Source: a virus (taxonomy: Duplodnaviria > Caudoviricetes). From it: DNA of 64,000 nt. The position numbers and the translations under genes are program-made. Numbering within the stretch: position 1 is the stretch's first letter; every line of letters starts with the position of its first letter. Positions 4,821 through 54,272 of the stretch are shown here, in pieces. A model generated the notes under the pieces. That model worked only from the letters and a program-made list of their open reading frames with translations. It did not search any database and was not told where the DNA came from. Where the stretch lies: IMG/VR virus record IMGVR_UViG_3300025580_000039, positions 5,619 to 69,618 of that record; one strand, given 5' to 3'.

Positions 4821-5900
4821 TCACGCAAGCAGGCCGTACCGGCCGGTTCGCAGGTTCCGAAGGGTACGGTCACCGACCAACCCGATCGTCGTACCAGCTT
4901 CCTGAAGGATGAGGAACTCGAACGACAGCTCGTAGGTGAAGGCGTCCGGGACGGTCAGGGCGAGGCCGGCGGCCGTCCAGACCGTGATGGAGACGGTCCT
5001 GGGGGTCGCGACGGCCGGCGACTCGACCCGTACGAGGCTCGCGGAGACCTCGCGGATGAGGGCGGGCTCGTCACCAAACAGCACGACCGTCGGGCACGAG
5101 AAGTCGTCCACGCTGGTGGTGAAGTCGTACGGGTGGGTCGCGGAGGGGTTGGCCACCCGGAACACCACGCTCGCGGCCGTTACGGTGAAGGGGGCGGCGT
5201 CGTAGATGCGGGTTCCGTTTGCCTCCACGATCACGCGATTGCGAACCCGGGTGATCCGAATCGTCCCCGACAGCATGGTGGACGGCGTGATGACATCCTC
5301 GACGGTCGTCCCCCCGACCACGCACAGGAACCGGAAGATGTGGCGCGATCCGGCCGGCAAGCTGGCGTCGAACTCGCGGGAGACCCGGAAGTAGTTGGAG
5401 GCGTCGACCTGCAACTCGAAGTCGAACAGGCGGGTCGTATCGGCCGGGGGCTGGTCGATCACATCCGTCTCGATGGTGAAGGCGGCCTCGAACGCACCCG
5501 TCGCCCCGAACGTCCCCACCGCCGTCAAGCGCGCCGAGCTGTTGGGGGTCGTGCCGCTCCGCAAGAGGAGACGGTCGTCTTGCGTGACCGTCCCCGACCC
5601 CGTCACCCCCGTCTCCCAGAGGGTCACGTCGATGACGGCGCCGGTGAAGTCGTCGTCGAAGGTGGTGTCGGTGTAGACGTACGGCCGTGCGTACGCGTCC
5701 GACCCGCCCGACATGATGAGGTCGGTACCGCCCTCGATGGGACCACCGGCTGCATCGAACAGGAAATCGGGTGGGGCCGGGGGGACGGGCGGCATGGGCC
5801 GCTCCGCACACCTCGACATCGCCCCCAGCACCTCGGCGGTGATGTCGAACGCAGAGAACCCTGCGGTCGGGTCGCGATCGGCGCCTGTCCGGTCGGCCAT
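4821..5900 (-). CDS. Split IPT/TIG-domain virion protein with inserted beta-sandwich; paralog of 8944..9918
   Basis: GGPIEGGTDLIMSG and VVLFGDEPA...VRVESPA...TVPDAFTY are the two IPT halves. Shares DDDF...W, NY..VSR and the C-terminal TLRN.RTGR.G.L with 8944..9918. Confidence 0.65.
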   Translation of the reverse strand: MADRTGADRDPTAGFSAFDITAEVLGAMSRCAERPMPPVPPAPPDFLFDAAGGPIEGGTDLIMSGGSDAYARPYVYTDTTFDDDFTGAVIDVTLWETGVTGSGTVTQDDRLLLRSGTTPNSSARLTAVGTFGATGAFEAAFTIETDVIDQPPADTTRLFDFELQVDASNYFRVSREFDASLPAGSRHIFRFLCVVGGTTVEDVITPSTMLSGTIRITRVRNRVIVEANGTRIYDAAPFTVTAASVVFRVANPSATHPYDFTTSVDDFSCPTVVLFGDEPALIREVSASLVRVESPAVATPRTVSITVWTAAGLALTVPDAFTYELSFEFLILQEAGTTIGLVGDRTLRNLRTGRYGLLA

Positions 5901-45522: not shown

Positions 45523-46110
45523 TCAGGTCACCCGGCATTTGTACGTGACCTTGAGCTTGTCGGCCGTCGTCTTGTTGACGACCGGTGACAGGACCACGCG
45601 GGCCATCATCGAGCCGCCCGGCGTCGTCTGCATGTCGAGGACGGCCAACTCACCGATGCCCGTCGCCGACAGCGTGCCGCCGCCCGATATCCACGAGTAC
45701 ATCCACCGGAACGTCCGGCCGGCCGACAGCGTGAACGCCGTGCAGGTGTGGATGGTGGACGTGATGGCCGTGATGACGTTCGTCTGGGCCGACCCAGCCG
45801 CCACTGTGTTGCGGCCCAGCCGGAAGTGATCGAACACCCGGCCGGCCGTGATCGAGCCGATGGCGAGGCGGAGGAGCCGCTTCTTCCCCACGTTGACGAC
45901 GAGGTTGGGGTGGACGGTGCGGCGCAGGCACACGATCCCGTTGGGACCGGCGCGGAACAGCTCGACCGTCGCCCAGCCGCGGACCACGTGGATCTTGTCG
46001 TGCAGGCTGGCGGGCGTCATCCGCTTCCACACGCCGACGAGCAGCGCGAGGAACGCGCCCCACACGCGCAGCCAAAGGGCGCGCAACCAATCACGCATCT
46101 TCGTCATCAT
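45523..46110 (-). CDS. Fibre-attachment (tail-collar-fibre/DUF3751-like) protein, about 195 aa (start 46110)
   Basis: NLVVNVGK, F.LG, GIGELAV, MMARVV...VNKT..DKL.VTY pattern; N-terminal Trp-rich hydrophobic stretch; AAGGAG RBS. Confidence 0.6.
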   Translation of the reverse strand: MMTKMRDWLRALWLRVWGAFLALLVGVWKRMTPASLHDKIHVVRGWATVELFRAGPNGIVCLRRTVHPNLVVNVGKKRLLRLAIGSITAGRVFDHFRLGRNTVAAGSAQTNVITAITSTIHTCTAFTLSAGRTFRWMYSWISGGGTLSATGIGELAVLDMQTTPGGSMMARVVLSPVVNKTTADKLKVTYKCRVT

Positions 46111-47947
46111 CTCCGTCTCCTTGTCGGGCTGCCCGGCGGGCAAGCGCATCCTCGAAGAGGCGTACGTTGTCGCGCGCCTCGGCCATGACTTCTTCGGGCG
46201 CGTCGTCGGGGATCTGCTCGACGACGATACGCGCCCACTTCAACCCTTCGTCCAGCAGACCCATCTCCCCGCAGACCATCGCGAGCCGTTGGGCCGGCAA
46301 GTACGTGTAGAACGGGCCGTCGTACCACCACTGCGTGATGGGCGCGTCACCGATCCGGACGGCCGAATACTTGTAGAACACGTGGGCCTGTTGGAGCTGG
46401 CCGGTCGCGTGCGCGAGGTCGCCCAGCATCAGCCAGTGCTCCGTGCGAGCCCAGTCGTCGAACGACATCGAATGGAGGAGCTGACGGGCCGTCTTGACGT
46501 CGTTGCGGCACTGCACCAGCAGCTTGGCCAGCACGAACTTGGCCATGTAGCGCATGGGCCCGTTCTTCGACGGCATCGCGATCAATTCTTCGAGGTACCG
46601 GATGGCCCGCTCGTCGTCGTACTCGCGCCACTCGAAGCCCAGGTAGAGGAGGGCGCCCTCCGAGCCCGTCTCCCGCCAGTCCTCCATGAGGGACAAGCGG
46701 TTCTGTACCTTGCGTTGCCCCCGCCGGAACTCCGTCCGCTCGTGGACGCGGTCGTGGATCGTCATGACGCCTGGGAGCAGGACGGCAAGCGAACCCTCGG
46801 GGTAGACGAGGAAGTTGTGAGTAGGACGCTTGAAATGGATGTTGTCCGGGTCGTTCCGGAACAGCCACTCGAAGAACCACTTGTCGCGCTGGCCGTGCGC
46901 CGTCCGCTGGACGACCCCGATCTTGGCGCCCTCGGGCAGCGCTTCGTCGAGGTGGAGGAGGATGTCCTGCCCCTTGCCGAGCCGTTCGTGTGCTTCGGTC
47001 ATGAAGATCCAGTCGCCCGAGCACTCCCGGATGCAGCGGTTGCGGCAGTGGGAGAAGTGGACCTGGGGGGCCTGGTCGTCGGGCGGACCCTGGGGGTCGT
47101 CGATGATGAAGACCTTCTCGGCGTACCTGCGGGCGATCTCCTCGGTGTTGTCCTTCGTGCGGTAGTCGATCCCGATCACCATCTCGTCGGCGATGCCGCG
47201 GAACGACGCGAGGGTGGCTTCGATGTCGGCCGCCTCATCGCGGGCCGGGAAGGTCACGCTGAGCGTGTAGGGCTTGTCGGCAAGGTCGCCGCACACGCCG
47301 AGCAGGAAGGGACCCATCACCTCGACGCGGCAGCGCTTCCCCCAGAACTCGCGCAGCAGCGTCAAGAACTCCAACGCCGTCCACTTGATCGTGTGCTGGG
47401 GCTCCTCGTCGGGGCCGAGCCGGTTGTTCGGCACCGAGAAGATGGCGCAGCCGGCCTCTTCGCTGGCCGCAGCAAGCAGACGGCGCCGCGCTCGATCGGA
47501 CAAGTGCTCCAGCACCTCCGTCGCCACGACGGCCGGGTGGGATTCGGCGACCAGGAAGCGCGGTGGGTTGGCCTCCGCCTCCAGGTCCACATTCAGCGTC
47601 TCGATGCCGGCGTCCTGCGCGATGCGCAGTGCCGACTCGCTGTGGTCCCACACGACGGTCCACAGCCCCTTCGCGGCGATCTGGGCCGCGAGAAGGCCGG
47701 CGCCCCCGCCGACATCGTAGACGGGCCCGTACGTCAGCCCACGACCGGTCCCCTTCGAGAGCAGCTTGGTGATCCGCTTGTAGACCCGTTCGAGCGCATG
47801 CTGCCGCCACGAGTCCTCCCCCTCCCGCTTCCAGATCCCATCCCAGAGGTCCCGCGCGTTGGCCGCACGGGCCCTGCGCTCCGCAGCCTCCCGGACGGCC
47901 TCCTCGATGGACGGCGAGCCAGTCAGCTCCATAGCCGCCTCACCCAT
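46091..47947 (-). CDS. SAM methyltransferase - GT2 glycosyltransferase - TPR fusion, 618 aa
   Basis: YDVGGGAG and ATEVLEHL (class I MTase); LSVTFPARDE...DEMVIGID...D.TEEIA...FSHCRN...GDWIFMTEAHE (GT2); helical TPR-like C-terminus (EHWLMLGDL.....QA..FY). Confidence 0.9.
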   Translation of the reverse strand: MGEAAMELTGSPSIEEAVREAAERRARAANARDLWDGIWKREGEDSWRQHALERVYKRITKLLSKGTGRGLTYGPVYDVGGGAGLLAAQIAAKGLWTVVWDHSESALRIAQDAGIETLNVDLEAEANPPRFLVAESHPAVVATEVLEHLSDRARRRLLAAASEEAGCAIFSVPNNRLGPDEEPQHTIKWTALEFLTLLREFWGKRCRVEVMGPFLLGVCGDLADKPYTLSVTFPARDEAADIEATLASFRGIADEMVIGIDYRTKDNTEEIARRYAEKVFIIDDPQGPPDDQAPQVHFSHCRNRCIRECSGDWIFMTEAHERLGKGQDILLHLDEALPEGAKIGVVQRTAHGQRDKWFFEWLFRNDPDNIHFKRPTHNFLVYPEGSLAVLLPGVMTIHDRVHERTEFRRGQRKVQNRLSLMEDWRETGSEGALLYLGFEWREYDDERAIRYLEELIAMPSKNGPMRYMAKFVLAKLLVQCRNDVKTARQLLHSMSFDDWARTEHWLMLGDLAHATGQLQQAHVFYKYSAVRIGDAPITQWWYDGPFYTYLPAQRLAMVCGEMGLLDEGLKWARIVVEQIPDDAPEEVMAEARDNVRLFEDALARRAARQGDGDDDEDA

Positions 47948-49589: not shown

Positions 49590-49990
49590 CCGCGGGTGTC
49601 CTCGGGCTTGGGGGGTACGGGGGTGCCGCCTGGGAGGTCGATGTCGATCCCCCTCTTCTTGAGCAGCCCCTTGACGACCTCGTAGGCGAACACCGAAACG
49701 GCCCCCGCCATCCCGAAGTACCCACATTGCTCGACGACAGTGTCGACGCCCGGTTCCGGCATCTTCCAGAAGAACCCGAGCGCCAGGCCGGTCACGACTG
49801 GATGGAGCGGGAGGGTCTTGCGCCCCCACCACCAGATCCACTGGGACGACCGCTTCATCCGGGCCTGCGCGTCCGTGAAGACCCGCTTGTTCATGACGGT
49901 CCCGACGAGTCCGAACACCACGACGGCCGCGAGGAACGCCCAGTGCTTCATGACCAAGTCGACAACCCGTTCCACCGTCTCCATCGTCAT
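49586..49990 (-). CDS. Holin-like protein with three TM segments, 134 aa (start 49990)
   Basis: Three hydrophobic segments; GAVSVFAYEVVK; basic/charged C-terminal tail. Confidence 0.7.
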   Translation of the reverse strand: MTMETVERVVDLVMKHWAFLAAVVVFGLVGTVMNKRVFTDAQARMKRSSQWIWWWGRKTLPLHPVVTGLALGFFWKMPEPGVDTVVEQCGYFGMAGAVSVFAYEVVKGLLKKRGIDIDLPGGTPVPPKPEDTRG

Positions 49991-50943
49991 CCTTGCTCGA
50001 TCGTCATCGCCATGAACTCGATCGTCATGGCGAGGTCGACCGTGTCGGCGTTGTCGATCCGGACCGTGATGGGAAGCCCGCGAACGTCGCCTTGCTGGGG
50101 GTTCGAGCTGGGCTCGTTGGCCGACCAAACGCGGCCGGCGTCGCCCGGATCGTAGATGAGGTACTCGTCGTTGGTGATGCGCGCGGTTGGGGCCCCCTGG
50201 TTGGTGGGGCCGAAAAACACCTGGGACGTGAAGTTGCGCGTCTGGGCGGTCGGGAACGTGGTGGTGACGGCCAGGACATCGTTCTGGTCGGCGCCCGGTA
50301 GCGACCCAGCGTCGACCACGACCGTGATGGCCTGGGTATCGTCGCCGAGCGTGATGGGGTCGGACTCGTTGCCGACCGGAAGGCTGATGACCGTCACGTC
50401 CACCGACATTGACGAGCCGTCCCCGCCGGCCAGGACGAAGACGCCGCCGGCCCCGACGTTGACGGCGGCGCCGGGTGCGCCTGCGCCGGGCGCCTGCCAT
50501 GTCAGCTCGGTCGTCCCCACGTTCCACGAGAGCGTCCCCGCCCCGTTGGCCGCATCGCTCGTGACCGAGAGGATGTCGACGCCCGTCACGGTGACGGGCT
50601 GGGTGATGGAGCGGCCCCGCAGTGTGAACGTGCCTCCCAGGGTCACGTCGATGGCCCGGCCGGGCCCCCCCGCACCGGGCGGCTGCCAGTCGAGCGTGGT
50701 GGCGGCGAACACGAACGACAGCGTTCCGGACCCATCCGGAACGGCGGCCGCCACCCCCGTCACCGCCACGCCCGTCACGTTGACGGGCTGCTCGATGTAG
50801 CGGGCCCCCACGACAATCTCGTCGGCCGCAGGAACTCCCCAGATGGTCAGGTCGTTGAAGGGGCGGTCCTGCCTGGCCATCACGACGTCCCTGACCGAAC
50901 CGGCCGGGACGACGACGCGCTGGGTGCTCCGGACGAACCTCAT
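49987..50943 (-). CDS. Virion protein, paralog of 50946..51662, two nested shared modules, 318 aa
   Basis: Shares MRF.R.T..V.VPA.S..DV.M.R.DR.F and YDPGDA.R.W..NEPSSN with its neighbour. Confidence 0.85.
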   Translation of the reverse strand: MRFVRSTQRVVVPAGSVRDVVMARQDRPFNDLTIWGVPAADEIVVGARYIEQPVNVTGVAVTGVAAAVPDGSGTLSFVFAATTLDWQPPGAGGPGRAIDVTLGGTFTLRGRSITQPVTVTGVDILSVTSDAANGAGTLSWNVGTTELTWQAPGAGAPGAAVNVGAGGVFVLAGGDGSSMSVDVTVISLPVGNESDPITLGDDTQAITVVVDAGSLPGADQNDVLAVTTTFPTAQTRNFTSQVFFGPTNQGAPTARITNDEYLIYDPGDAGRVWSANEPSSNPQQGDVRGLPITVRIDNADTVDLAMTIEFMAMTIEQG

Positions 50944-50945
50944 GG

Positions 50946-51662
50946 CTAGCCCTGGTCGATCGTCATCGAGGTGAACTCGATGGTGATGTCGAGGTCGTTG
51001 GCGATGTCGGTGTTGATGACCCGACAGGTGACCGGGAAACCGCGTGCCTGGTTGGTCGTCCCTTTCTGGGGGGAGTTGGAGCTGGGCTCGTTGGGCGGCC
51101 AGATCCGAACGGCGTCGCCCGGGTCGTACGCGAGGTACGCCTCATCGTTCACGCGGGCGGCCGCTGCTCCTTGGGCGGTCTGGCCGAAGAAAATCTGGGT
51201 CGTGAAGGATCGGACCTGCGCGGCCGCCACCACCAGCGTCACGGCGATCACGTCGGACGCGTCCGCCCCGGGGAGGAGGGAGAGGTCGACGTCGACGTCG
51301 ACGTAGCTGCCGTCGCCGCCCTGAAGCCGCACGAGCAGGCTGCCGGTCGTGGCAGACGGGAGCCCGACGGCCGGCCCCGGTGCCGGGCTACCCGGCGCCT
51401 GCCATTGCAGGGCCCGCGGGCGGATCGTGAACGACAGCGTGCCCGTCGCCGTCCCCGTGACGGTCGTCTCGGAGACGCGCAAGACCGTCACGCCCGTCAC
51501 GTTGACGAGAGCGCCGAGCGTACGGTCCCCGTTGGTCCGGCCGGTCGAAGGGATCGCCCAAACGGTCAGCTCGCGGAACGCGCGGTCCTCGCGCGGCATC
51601 ATGACGTCGAGGGCCGAATCGGCCGGCACTCGAACGGTCCTGGTGTATCGATTGAACCGCAT
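50946..51662 (-). CDS. Virion protein with one shared module, 238 aa
   Basis: GGGAGG RBS; colinear with the downstream paralog. Confidence 0.85.
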   Translation of the reverse strand: MRFNRYTRTVRVPADSALDVMMPREDRAFRELTVWAIPSTGRTNGDRTLGALVNVTGVTVLRVSETTVTGTATGTLSFTIRPRALQWQAPGSPAPGPAVGLPSATTGSLLVRLQGGDGSYVDVDVDLSLLPGADASDVIAVTLVVAAAQVRSFTTQIFFGQTAQGAAAARVNDEAYLAYDPGDAVRIWPPNEPSSNSPQKGTTNQARGFPVTCRVINTDIANDLDITIEFTSMTIDQG

Positions 51663-51685: not shown

Positions 51686-52960
51686 TCAGCCCGGCATGCC
51701 CTGCCGGTGGATGAACTCGTCGCCGTCATCCGACTCGACCGGGGCCTCCTCGGGGCTCGGGATCTCGTGGAGGTGCTGCAACTCCACGGTCGCCCACCGC
51801 TTCACGGACGGCCAGTACCCCTTGGACCGGACGTGCTCCAGCTCGTCCTCGGTCAGGCGGCCGAGCGTCTGAAGCTCCTGGAGGATCTTGGACGCCGGCC
51901 GGATGTTGCCCGGGTTGATGGCGGTGCCGTCCCCGGCCGCCCGCTTCTGCTCGTCGACGACGTCCTGCTGGACGTTGTACATGAGGATGCGGATGCGGTC
52001 CCGGATCGCCTCCTCCTCGGTGACGAACTCGTTGGACGCGACCCGCTGGTGCTCGCCGAAGTGGGTGGCGCCCGCCGGCCCGCTGCCTGCCTCGACGACC
52101 CGGTGGATCGGCTTGGGGGCGGGGCCGTCCTCGACGGTCTCCCGGTAGGCCAGCCGGGCCTGCTCGGAGCGGCGCATCGCCTCCTCGGTGGAGATGCGGA
52201 GGGCGGCGGCGCGCTGCTCGTAGTAGGCGCGGTACTCGTCCTCCTCCATGATGCGGAGGTACCGCTGGTTGGTCTCACGGTTGCGCGCGTTGAACGCCTT
52301 GCGGACGTCGACCGACTGCTTGAGATCCTGGAACGACACCATCGAGGTGAGGTTGACGGGATCGGGGGATGCGGGGATCGAGATGGACGTGTAGTTGCCG
52401 TTCGGCAGCCTGAACTCGATGACGAAGTTGGACGCGTGGAGGTTCTGGACGTAGATGTCCCGCTCCTCCCGCCAGAACTCCGTCCAGTTGAGGATGTCGC
52501 CGTTCTTGTCGAGATACTGCTTGCTGCTCATTGGAGGTCTCCTTTCGACCTGTACGCGACCGGTCCGGACCAACCGGATGGTCGGTGGCTCAAGCGTGAC
52601 AACGAAGGCGCGGCCTTCCCGAAGGAAGCCGGTCGCCTTGTGGGCAAGGAAGACGGTCGCGAACGAGCCATCTGGGCTGAGGACCCGGACGGGCTCGTCA
52701 TGGCGACGGAAGTAGTAGCGTTCGCCCGGCGGTGCCCCCAGGCTGCCGCGTCGTAGGCGAAGGGTGCAGAGCGGTTGGTACGCGAAGACGTACGCATCGC
52801 GGTCGCGCAGTAGGATGCGCGCTCGACCGCTCGACACGTAGTAGAGGAAGAGGCGGTTGGGATCGATGACGGCAACGAGTGGCTTGCCGTTGCCGTTGCC
52901 TCCTCGCTCTCCGTTGGATCCCACACCATCGTCTCCAGTTCTCCGAAGGGCTTGCACCAA
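51686..52960 (-). CDS. ORF with N-terminal tandem PLMP/RRXRR-like domains in frame with a 281-aa post-capsid protein (strong internal start at 52531)
   Basis: GAAAGGAG-N7-ATG at 52531 (MSSKQYLDK...). The upstream frame is open, GC3-rich and contains two 40-41 aa PLMP-like units; its start is uncertain (TTG 52960 or GTG 52924). Confidence 0.7.
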   Translation of the reverse strand: MVQALRRTGDDGVGSNGERGGNGNGKPLVAVIDPNRLFLYYVSSGRARILLRDRDAYVFAYQPLCTLRLRRGSLGAPPGERYYFRRHDEPVRVLSPDGSFATVFLAHKATGFLREGRAFVVTLEPPTIRLVRTGRVQVERRPPMSSKQYLDKNGDILNWTEFWREERDIYVQNLHASNFVIEFRLPNGNYTSISIPASPDPVNLTSMVSFQDLKQSVDVRKAFNARNRETNQRYLRIMEEDEYRAYYEQRAAALRISTEEAMRRSEQARLAYRETVEDGPAPKPIHRVVEAGSGPAGATHFGEHQRVASNEFVTEEEAIRDRIRILMYNVQQDVVDEQKRAAGDGTAINPGNIRPASKILQELQTLGRLTEDELEHVRSKGYWPSVKRWATVELQHLHEIPSPEEAPVESDDGDEFIHRQGMPG

Positions 52961-53007
52961 CTCCTGGTGGTCAGTAGCTCGTGCAAAACCTCCCGACCTT
53001 AGTGACC

Positions 53008-53039
53008 CCGCCGGTGGAGCGCTGGGACTCCACCGGCGG
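53008..53039 (-). terminator. Perfect 12-bp hairpin after the major capsid gene (no U-tract)
   Basis: CCGCCGGTGGAG-8nt-CTCCACCGGCGG, starting about 27 nt after the MCP stop. Confidence 0.6.
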
Positions 53040-53066
53040 TGTCGATGACGCTTCAGTGGGGCGCGG

Positions 53067-54272
53067 TTACGGCTTCGCGCCCTTCGCGACCGCCCGAGCG
53101 TTCGGGATGCCGAAGCCGATGATCTCGCAGAACGCCCATCCCTTGACGGTCTCCTGCGTGACGAACCGGTTGTACGGCTCCGAGAACAGCTCGACCCGGA
53201 CGCCCATCTCTCCGAGGTACTCGGAGCCCGTGACCGCGTAGAAGGTTCCCGCGGGCACGACTTCCTCGACGCCCGTACCGGCCGTCGTGATGATCTGGGC
53301 GTTCAGGTAGTTGCCGATGTAGCCGGCGAGGATGAGTTCCCGCTCGGTCACCGGGTCGACGGTCGTCGACATCGTCTTGATGATGTCCGAGAGTTCCGCA
53401 CGGTTGATGAGGAACTTCTCGACGATCAGACGGTGCCGCTCGACCTGGTAGCGCACGTCCTCGAACGCGCCCGTCCCGAGGGACGTGAACGTCGTGGCCG
53501 TGTTGACCGCGGTCGAGGCACGGTCGAGCAGCAGGCGACCGCGCTTGTCCTCGTTCAGCTCGATCTCCTGCCGCGCGGTGTCCTGCGCGCGATCGAGCAC
53601 GTCGTAGTTCATCTGGTAGATGTCGAAGATGTCGACGCTCGTGAAAGCGACGATCTTCGTCTCATCCGGCTGGATGTACCGACCGTGGAGGCGAGCCTCG
53701 ATGGCCTGTCCATCCTGACCGACGACGAACGCGACGCTGCGAACGTCCTTCGCGATCCTGAACAGCTCGCCCTGCGCGAGCGGACGCACGCGGTACACCT
53801 TGCGCGCCCATCCCTCGTAGTCGACGATGTCCTTGATCGGAAGGAGGAGTTCCTGACCGACGAGGGCGAAGCCCTCCCCGGTCGGGTCCTGAAGCGCCTG
53901 GGCCACGATGTTCATCTTGGCCTGACGCTCCTGGAGGGACTCGCGCTGAGCAGCCGCCTTCATGATCGACTGCTGAGCGCCCGGGCCCACGTTCTGGAGC
54001 AGGTGGGCGATCTGCCGAAGGACATCTCCGTTGTCGTAGGCGGACATCTGCCCCGACTTGTCGAACATGCGGTCCTTCGACTCCGCACGGCCCGACCCCG
54101 GACCGGTCTTGCGACCGGCCTGGCGGAGGGGGTTGAGCTGCCCAGACTCGTCCCACACACGCTCCTCCGCCTTCGACGTCGGAGTGTGGCGGACGCTGCC
54201 GAGCGGCAGGCCCCTCGATGCGACCTTGGGTGTTCCGGACTGGGAGGTCCGGAACGGATTCACTCGTTCCAT
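53067..54272 (-). CDS. Major capsid protein (HK97 fold), 401 aa
   Basis: LLLPIKDIVDYEGWARK...LAQGE...KD, DRAQDTARQEIELNED and final GW...E.IGF...N.RAV; follows protease and decoration genes. Confidence 0.9.
   Translation of the reverse strand: MERVNPFRTSQSGTPKVASRGLPLGSVRHTPTSKAEERVWDESGQLNPLRQAGRKTGPGSGRAESKDRMFDKSGQMSAYDNGDVLRQIAHLLQNVGPGAQQSIMKAAAQRESLQERQAKMNIVAQALQDPTGEGFALVGQELLLPIKDIVDYEGWARKVYRVRPLAQGELFRIAKDVRSVAFVVGQDGQAIEARLHGRYIQPDETKIVAFTSVDIFDIYQMNYDVLDRAQDTARQEIELNEDKRGRLLLDRASTAVNTATTFTSLGTGAFEDVRYQVERHRLIVEKFLINRAELSDIIKTMSTTVDPVTERELILAGYIGNYLNAQIITTAGTGVEEVVPAGTFYAVTGSEYLGEMGVRVELFSEPYNRFVTQETVKGWAFCEIIGFGIPNARAVAKGAKP

Follow-up and report, generated by a model that had tools for sequence, protein, structure and literature searches.

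PLMP is described as a hallmark domain of the IscB and IsrB nucleases, one that was lost by Cas9. We describe here a phage gene in which two PLMP domains occur without a nuclease, in front of a conserved C-terminal module (termed X), and which is probably read from two starts. The gene lies on the minus strand of a 64 kb stretch of DNA (the window; positions 5,619 to 69,618 of the IMG/VR virus record IMGVR_UViG_3300025580_000039), downstream of the major capsid protein gene. An earlier note, made from the sequence of the window, had described it as a pair of IscB-type PLMP/RRXRR domains in frame with a post-capsid gene.

In IscB and IsrB, PLMP binds the terminal hairpins of the omega-RNA (PMC9581776; PMC9640706). 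The IsrB domain holds tandem terminal hairpins, one of which contains the Shine–Dalgarno (SD) sequence just upstream of isrB, and the IsrB structure shows extensive contacts of PLMP with RuvC and the TI domain (PMC9581776). The authors of that structure also proposed the N-terminal domains of IF3 as remote relatives of PLMP (PMC9581776). As a reference for the comparisons below, PLMP of IscB/IsrB was taken as the N-terminal ~45–55 residues of the Pfam family RRXRR (PF14239) and as seen in PDB entries 7UTN, 7XHT, 8DMB, 9K2Z and 9K30. In the literature searched, PLMP is mentioned only in nucleases of the IscB, IsrB and Cas9d types, which is absence of evidence only.

Two PLMP domains without a nuclease

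The frame 51686–52960 is open and stop-free, and like the surrounding head genes it is on the minus strand. The long coding sequence (51686–52924, stop included) begins at a GTG and specifies 412 aa, made up of two PLMP units and module X. An SD-like GGAGA (52932–52936) lies 7 nt before this GTG, the same start is common to the relatives P0005 and P0006, and the exact 412-aa product of the window is recorded as a called gene (P0004). Unit 1 occupies residues 17–57 (52754–52876) and unit 2 residues 79–118 (52571–52690), each delimited by a stretch of Pfam RRXRR, by a family profile and by an AlphaFold model. The coordinates proposed earlier, 52876–52754 and 52690–52571, were borne out, and both units share one open frame with the ATG at 52531.

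Both units are true PLMP homologues without a nuclease, because three independent lines agree, namely the sequence evidence across the family, profile matches in the PDB, and structure. Within the N-terminal 143 aa, PF14239 was matched in two stretches, both at profile positions 1–41 of 174 (E = 5.7e-5, 23.5 bits). The curated (gathering) cut-off of 25 bits is not reached by the window protein, either with these 143 aa or with the whole protein (17.5–17.9 bits). The same N-terminus in five complete relatives scores 31.7–35.4 bits, above the cut-off, and is the sole PF14239 match in each of those genomes. By these scores the clade as such passes the cut-off, and the window units are divergent members of it. 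Across the aligned family, 65 of 76 members match PF14239 at E ≤ 0.01 (best 2e-11), and a hidden Markov model (HMM) built from single-unit relatives only finds window residues 16–52 (E = 8.6e-9) and 79–120 (E = 1.8e-5). Aligned with each other, the units share 33% identity (E = 2e-4). When the family profile was compared with all PDB sequences, the six matches were all IscB chains and all fell within the PLMP domain; the best was PLMP of TbaIscB (E = 2.6e-4), aligned to the unit 2 part, and one distant relative searched alone gave the identical top match. A word-indexed search with the PLMP region alone returned three close relatives and nothing more.

An AlphaFold2 model of the long isoform, built on the 76-sequence alignment, has a mean predicted local distance difference test (pLDDT) score of 83, and both PLMP units are above 90. 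Its N-terminus is predicted to form two beta-beta-alpha-beta-beta units, the strands and helix of unit 1 falling at residues 17–57. In a structural superposition search, the eight best rows paired modelled unit 2 with the PLMP domains of seven IscB structures and DtIsrB (Z 5.8–7.2, 20–32% identity). Seven of these eight superpose at 0.9–1.4 Å over 44–45 residues, while 9k30 does so at 2.9 Å over 48. Modelled unit 1 aligns less closely with IscB 9liq (Z 5.3, 3.4 Å over 50 residues).

The absence of a nuclease after the units, as the earlier note had it, was also seen here. Beyond position 41 the RRXRR profile spans RuvC-I and the bridge helix, and this part is unmatched in the window protein; no RuvC family matches the protein, and no HNH family in Pfam does so at E ≤ 10. 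In the model, the second PLMP unit is followed by an unrelated alpha/beta and helical module, with neither RuvC nor bridge helix. Elsewhere in the window there is no second PF14239 match and no RuvC match.

Inside the coding sequence of unit 1, positions 52783–52825 (minus strand) give a sub-threshold Rfam match to the Xanthomonas small RNA asX4 (22.6 bits, gathering score 100, E = 5e-4), most likely by chance.

A conserved internal start

The linker codons E-R-R-P between unit 2 and module X read GAAAGGAGA, which puts an internal SD sequence, AAGGAG (52539–52544, within the E-R-R codons), 8 nt before the ATG at 52531. The stop-free passage of the upstream frame into a protein with a strong ribosome-binding site and ATG of its own, as first noticed by eye, is real. 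Translation from this ATG would give a short isoform of 281 aa (51686–52531), equal to module X alone. Gene callers picked either start, depending on the relative; the short form was called in P0008, P0012 and P0015, and the ESM Atlas has an entry identical to the 281-aa short form of the window.

The stretch between PLMP and X always contains a Met, in rare cases replaced by Val, a few residues upstream of the conserved motif N-[FW]-T-x-[FY]-F. In 31 of 37 loci (84%) the equivalent start is preceded, at 4–17 nt, by an SD core of 5 nt or more, compared with 8% of the other in-frame codon positions of the same genes. The linker residues vary by clade (ERRP, DPRED, IRRRK, PKEAN), and the nucleotide motif GGAG/GGAGG persists. 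Because the internal SD and ATG are conserved, the gene at 51686–52924 is read as probably nested, built for a 412-aa PLMP-PLMP-X protein and a 281-aa X protein; this prediction from conserved signals is in line with the long and short isoforms suggested by the earlier note.

Family breadth and selection

At E ≤ 0.001, an exhaustive profile search recovered the representatives of at least 243 clusters made at 50% identity. Among the 164 family proteins in hand, 93 have one PLMP unit, nine have two, and 62 have none as called, 54 of the latter beginning right at the C-terminal module. At the DNA level, which is free of gene-calling bias, 36 of 37 distinct loci keep PLMP and X in one frame. The tandem units are present upstream and in frame of P0015, which had been called as a short protein, and one locus (L048) truly has no room for a PLMP before X. 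The extension is stop-free and in frame from about 30% to 75% identity.

Pairwise ratios of non-synonymous to synonymous substitution (dN/dS) among five relatives are 0.10–0.40 for the PLMP region, comparable with the 0.33–0.44 of the C-terminal part. Given these values for the PLMP region, and in-frame conservation across at least 243 clusters, the comparisons mark the N-terminal extension as under purifying selection and not as a relic. This conservation contradicts the decayed IS200/605 remnant that had been offered as an alternative origin, and the PLMP-X architecture is real and widespread. Tandem PLMP is restricted to the subclade of the window, all others, including Virus Rctr197k, having a single unit; one unit is the ancestral state of the family, and two that of the window's subclade. 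Two PHROG families of HNH endonucleases (2214 and 119) also have the PLMP N-terminus.

In the 335-aa protein P0093, the PLMP unit (at residue 170) is preceded by an N-terminal half resembling a membrane permease; this protein represents a further architecture or else a chimeric gene call.

Hairpins and leader RNA

The intergenic leader folds with a z-score of −3.9. It contains a 13-bp, G+C-rich hairpin at 53008–53039, which lies 28 nt behind the stop of the capsid gene, and another, interrupted one at 52942–52996, in the 5′ leader of the long isoform (both read on the minus strand). The former was previously described as a 12-bp hairpin with a possible PLMP-related role. The structure is real, but a capsid gene terminator fits better than the proposed role. 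Nearly all relatives have a strong hairpin, unrelated in sequence and often with a U-tract, behind the capsid stop, and in locus L008, where an HNH gene is inserted, PLMP-X starts directly after the HNH gene without such a hairpin. Since position and not sequence is kept after the capsid stop, and since L008 does without it, the hairpin at 53008–53039 is probably a terminator of the capsid gene, or an mRNA-stabilising hairpin, as expected behind a highly expressed gene, and not a PLMP ligand.

In sister clades, a two-hairpin 5′ leader motif, AACC-[CCGC...GCGG]-GAGGU-[GGGU...ACCC]-UGGCAC, occurs 25–60 nt before the long start. It was defined on 14 distinct single-PLMP loci (alignment A7, covariance model R1), these being L018 (3936–3980), L035 (3698–3742), L032 (1587–1631) and 11 further loci. 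Compensatory changes occur in four of its nine pairs, the fraction of paired cells is 90%, and none of 500 shuffles reached the observed covariation. The motif has no Rfam counterpart, and a search with R1 returned the 14 seed loci and the near-identical L029 only. Rfam searches (E-value mode) of window positions 52300–53400 and of the loci of seven relatives gave no relevant significant family, the window leader being only about 140 nt long. Two ad hoc pattern scans with a looser core, AGGU-GGGN-loop-NCCC, were not robust and were not used. As the IsrB domain grips tandem terminal hairpins, one with an SD, the tandem-hairpin, GGGAGG-containing leader before the PLMP-first gene of the sister clades suggests a parallel to the omega-RNA of IsrB.

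The C-terminal module X

The model of X (pLDDT 86) has an alpha/beta domain at the N-terminus, followed by two long helices, a Gly/Pro-rich linker that is disordered, and a C-terminal bundle of four helices; the tail is acidic. A PDB-wide structural search with X gave only helical-bundle matches (Z ≤ 6.3), of no diagnostic value, and the ESM Atlas gave no usable feature match. Weak CRP/FNR-like and TFIIS-N-like rows (Z 3.5–5) in the superposition search were left uninterpreted. Among predicted viral structures (BFVD, searched with Foldseek), X matches uncharacterised proteins of 200–246 aa from the phages PaBG and Motura (E = 7.5e-8 to 4e-5, over 242–271 columns) and, more weakly, a BcepSaruman protein (E = 1.4e-3). 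The family profile matches PaBG_00154 collinearly over both X domains (E = 7.8e-8 and 6.5e-5), and hhalign aligns the X family to Motura gp042 (E = 8.9e-5, 60% probability). The family phrog_17686 (PHROG 17686) is matched by 30 of the 76 relatives; the window protein itself has no PHROG match at E ≤ 1 save one that is weak and unrelated. The Motura genes flanking the capsid gene were considered as X homologues and rejected, the true homologue (gp042) being elsewhere.

The X homologues of PaBG, Motura, RSL1 and BcepSaruman are all 200–246 aa long and lack PLMP. PaBG_00154 (KF147891, 112347–113018) has as neighbours a primase, a RecB/Cas4 exonuclease and a RuvC-type resolvase; Motura gp042 (NC_049849, 33373–34050) a large terminase and an Mre11-like phosphoesterase; and both RSL1 ORF299 (NC_010811, 206968–207684) and BcepSaruman gp188 (NC_049850, 107024–107749) a DEAD helicase and a recombination endonuclease. 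Mre11-like nucleases adjoin the homologues in Motura, RSL1 and BcepSaruman. Many cultured jumbo myophages have such a PLMP-less homologue of X, a conserved 'hypothetical protein' encoded amid genes for replication and recombination, and the family seems never to have been studied.

The lack of room for PLMP in locus L048, together with the PLMP-less homologues of jumbo phages, suggests that X can work without PLMP. The location of the gene after the capsid gene, from which the earlier note took its name for it, is very stable in the clade, but a structural role need not follow. Because homologues of X occur among replication and recombination genes, the stable position is no proof of such a role, and a role related to nucleic acids is at least as likely.

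Genomic context and relatives

The record behind the window is an IMG/VR virus sequence of 69.6 kb, of which the window covers 64 kb, and its completeness is estimated at ~40%. At the DNA level, the capsid genes of the window and of Virus Rctr197k are 78% identical; the latter phage is 197 kb long and came from a methane-oxidising (DAMO/anammox) enrichment culture. Complete relatives of the window phage are 166–212 kb in length. The window phage is an uncultured large phage related to Virus Rctr197k. This virus was the sole find when the window protein and the relative P0034 were compared with cultured-phage records by tblastn.

The major capsid protein gene (53067–54272, minus strand) matches phrog_2522, major head protein (E = 2e-55). 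Near the PLMP gene, on the same strand, is a gene for a head-maturation protease fusion of 803 aa (phrog_18299, E = 2e-37), and a 259-aa gene, also on the minus strand, lies between this protease/scaffold gene and the capsid gene. The order protease/scaffold gene, 259-aa gene, capsid gene, PLMP-X is found in nearly all of 40 IMG/VR loci.

In close relatives, free-standing homing-endonuclease genes of two different families make the gap from the capsid gene to PLMP-X an insertion hotspot. HNH genes are found in L007 (2794–3513) and L008 (1780–2499), the stop of the latter and the start of PLMP-X being one base apart, and LAGLIDADG genes in L004 (about 2390–2600) and in the P0010 contig. These HNH genes are separate upstream homing-endonuclease genes and not part of PLMP-X. 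In L013, a tRNA gene (1442–1515; Rfam tRNA, 47 bits) lies between the capsid gene and PLMP-X. Locus L007 also has, at 1–717, a gene of 1168 aa that runs off the locus and is a much longer homologue of the 803-aa protease/scaffold gene; weak or faint precomputed Pfam matches to Hint and LAGLIDADG_3 suggest that this head protease gene carries an inserted intein.

The two genes that follow PLMP-X in the window, 50946–51662 and 49987–50943 (both minus strand), are paralogues with common N-termini (M-R-F-x-R-x-T) and with C-termini ending T-I-[DE]-Q-G. They have no Pfam or PHROG match, and relatives hold one or two copies of varying length. Further along, in the phage late region, an open reading frame (ORF) of 618 aa (46091–47947, minus strand) has Pfam matches to Methyltransf_12/23/25 and to a family-2 glycosyltransferase.

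Interpretation and alternatives

We read the gene as a nested, two-product gene in which PLMP would be an exapted, nuclease-free accessory module that binds structured nucleic acid or feeds back on its own translation, and put the probability of this reading at about 0.6. The long product would place two tandem PLMP domains in front of the conserved two-domain module X, and the short product, initiated at the conserved internal SD and ATG 52531, would be X alone. By analogy with IscB and IsrB, PLMP may bind structured nucleic acid, with an RNA hairpin as the likeliest ligand, and could then either tether a fraction of X to that RNA or feed back on the translation of its own mRNA. The internal start would set the ratio of PLMP-bearing to PLMP-free X.

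Several observations weigh against this interpretation. The residues P-L-M-P of strand 2 are not kept, the window units having L-F-L-Y and S-F-A-T at these positions, although L-x-P is retained in some relatives (e.g., P0017, P0032 and L039). The covariance model R1 is unmatched upstream of the window gene, its second hairpin included, and upstream of L001, L004 and L007–L017. In IscB and IsrB, PLMP packs against RuvC and TI, so that its role there is partly structural, and the nucleic-acid ligand of the window PLMP is assigned by likeness to those proteins. Module X is without a Pfam family and without a clear fold match in the PDB, and both isoforms are predictions from sequence signals.

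The internal SD-like sequence and Met could be by-products of a basic linker, with no initiation there and only the long protein made. The linker is indeed rich in Arg and Lys in most members, and purine-rich codons for Arg, Lys and Glu resemble an SD. This explanation is improbable, as GGAG/GGAGG is kept while the encoded residues differ from clade to clade, an ATG (rarely GTG) follows the motif at 5–9 nt in essentially all loci, and the enrichment of SD cores is 84% against 8%; independent gene callers also picked the internal start in many relatives, and X-only genes exist. Still less credit, and indeed very little, can be given to the extension being the remnant of a decayed IscB/IS200-605 element, or of a PLMP-bearing HNH homing endonuclease, in frame by chance with the only functional protein, the short one. 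The mobile endonucleases in the capsid/PLMP-X gap (HNH in L007 and L008, LAGLIDADG in L004 and the P0010 contig) and the PLMP N-termini of PHROG families 2214 and 119 speak for such a relic, but the extension has a dN/dS of 0.10–0.40, stays stop-free and in frame over the whole range of identities, is carried by 102 of 164 called family proteins, and has a confidently predicted fold (pLDDT above 90); no remains of TnpA, RuvC or HNH were noticed, and Rfam gave no omega-RNA match.

A different reading accepts the PLMP units as functional and has them act through protein–protein or DNA contacts instead of RNA, docking X on a RuvC-like or other phage nuclease in trans, or binding phage DNA. The extensive PLMP–RuvC–TI contacts of the IsrB structure speak for it, as does the proximity of recombination genes to the X homologues of jumbo phages (the RuvC-type resolvase in PaBG, and Mre11-like nucleases in Motura, RSL1 and BcepSaruman). 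RNA hairpins, on the other hand, are the best-documented ligand of PLMP, no partner was identified, and the window has no other PF14239 or RuvC match; we consider this reading unlikely, though it has some substance. Rather doubtful, too, is the more far-reaching idea of an autonomous RNA–protein pair outside the OMEGA nucleases, made up of PLMP and a short RNA with tandem hairpins directly upstream of the PLMP gene; it is founded on the leader motif of the sister clades. If so, the long isoform would bind the hairpins of its own 5′ leader, setting its own translation or loading X onto RNA, in parallel to the IsrB PLMP gripping the SD-bearing terminal omega-RNA hairpins upstream of isrB, and the phage family would be either a co-opted fragment of an omega-RNA 3′ end with its PLMP, or a relative of the source of the IscB/IsrB domain.

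Comparison with known systems

Like PLMP of IscB and IsrB, the phage units have a predicted beta-beta-alpha-beta-beta fold and an N-terminal position in the protein, and they share with it the signature V-x-V-hydrophobic-D/G, a basic helix A-R-x-L-L-+-x-G-+-A, and P-F/P-x-I-+-L. Unlike those nucleases, the phage protein lacks RuvC, the bridge helix, HNH and the TI domain, its PLMP is in tandem and fused to an unrelated phage module, and no omega-RNA was recognised upstream of the gene by Rfam. No TnpA or transposon ends were noticed on inspection of the ORF list around the gene, with no dedicated search made, and the neighbours are phage head genes. Because RuvC, HNH, TI and a transposon context are absent on test or inspection, the window protein is neither IscB nor IsrB. 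What is new is the architecture in which a known domain occurs, a nuclease-free PLMP fused to a phage module. The N-terminal domain of IF3 has a similar small alpha/beta fold and was present in the fold searches, but its match to the phage PLMP is much weaker (Z about 4 and a root-mean-square deviation of 6–10 Å, compared with Z 6–7 and about 1 Å for IscB), and there is no match at the sequence level.

The origin of PLMP, and how it acts on its own, are questions on which a nuclease-free family in uncultured large phages bears. As a large family under selection, it offers a natural stand-alone context for probing the PLMP ligand, and an outgroup for polarising the evolution of OMEGA nucleases.

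Module X is common to PLMP-X and to PaBG_00154, Motura gp042, RSL1 ORF299, BcepSaruman gp188 and PHROG 17686. The jumbo-phage proteins differ in being without PLMP and in their replication and recombination neighbourhoods, away from the capsid gene, and all are annotated as hypothetical; PLMP-X provides a first handle on this conserved, unannotated jumbo-phage protein (PHROG 17686, PaBG_00154-like).

Nested genes that give two products in the same frame are known in phages, such as lambda C/Nu3, T7 gp4A/4B and phiX174 A/A*. Like them, the gene described here has an in-frame internal ribosome-binding site and start codon, which would yield a full-length and an N-terminally truncated protein. 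It differs in that both products are predicted, and in that an IscB-type PLMP module is what the long form has over the short one, making it an example of a phage gene seemingly built for nucleic-acid-targeted and untargeted versions of one protein.

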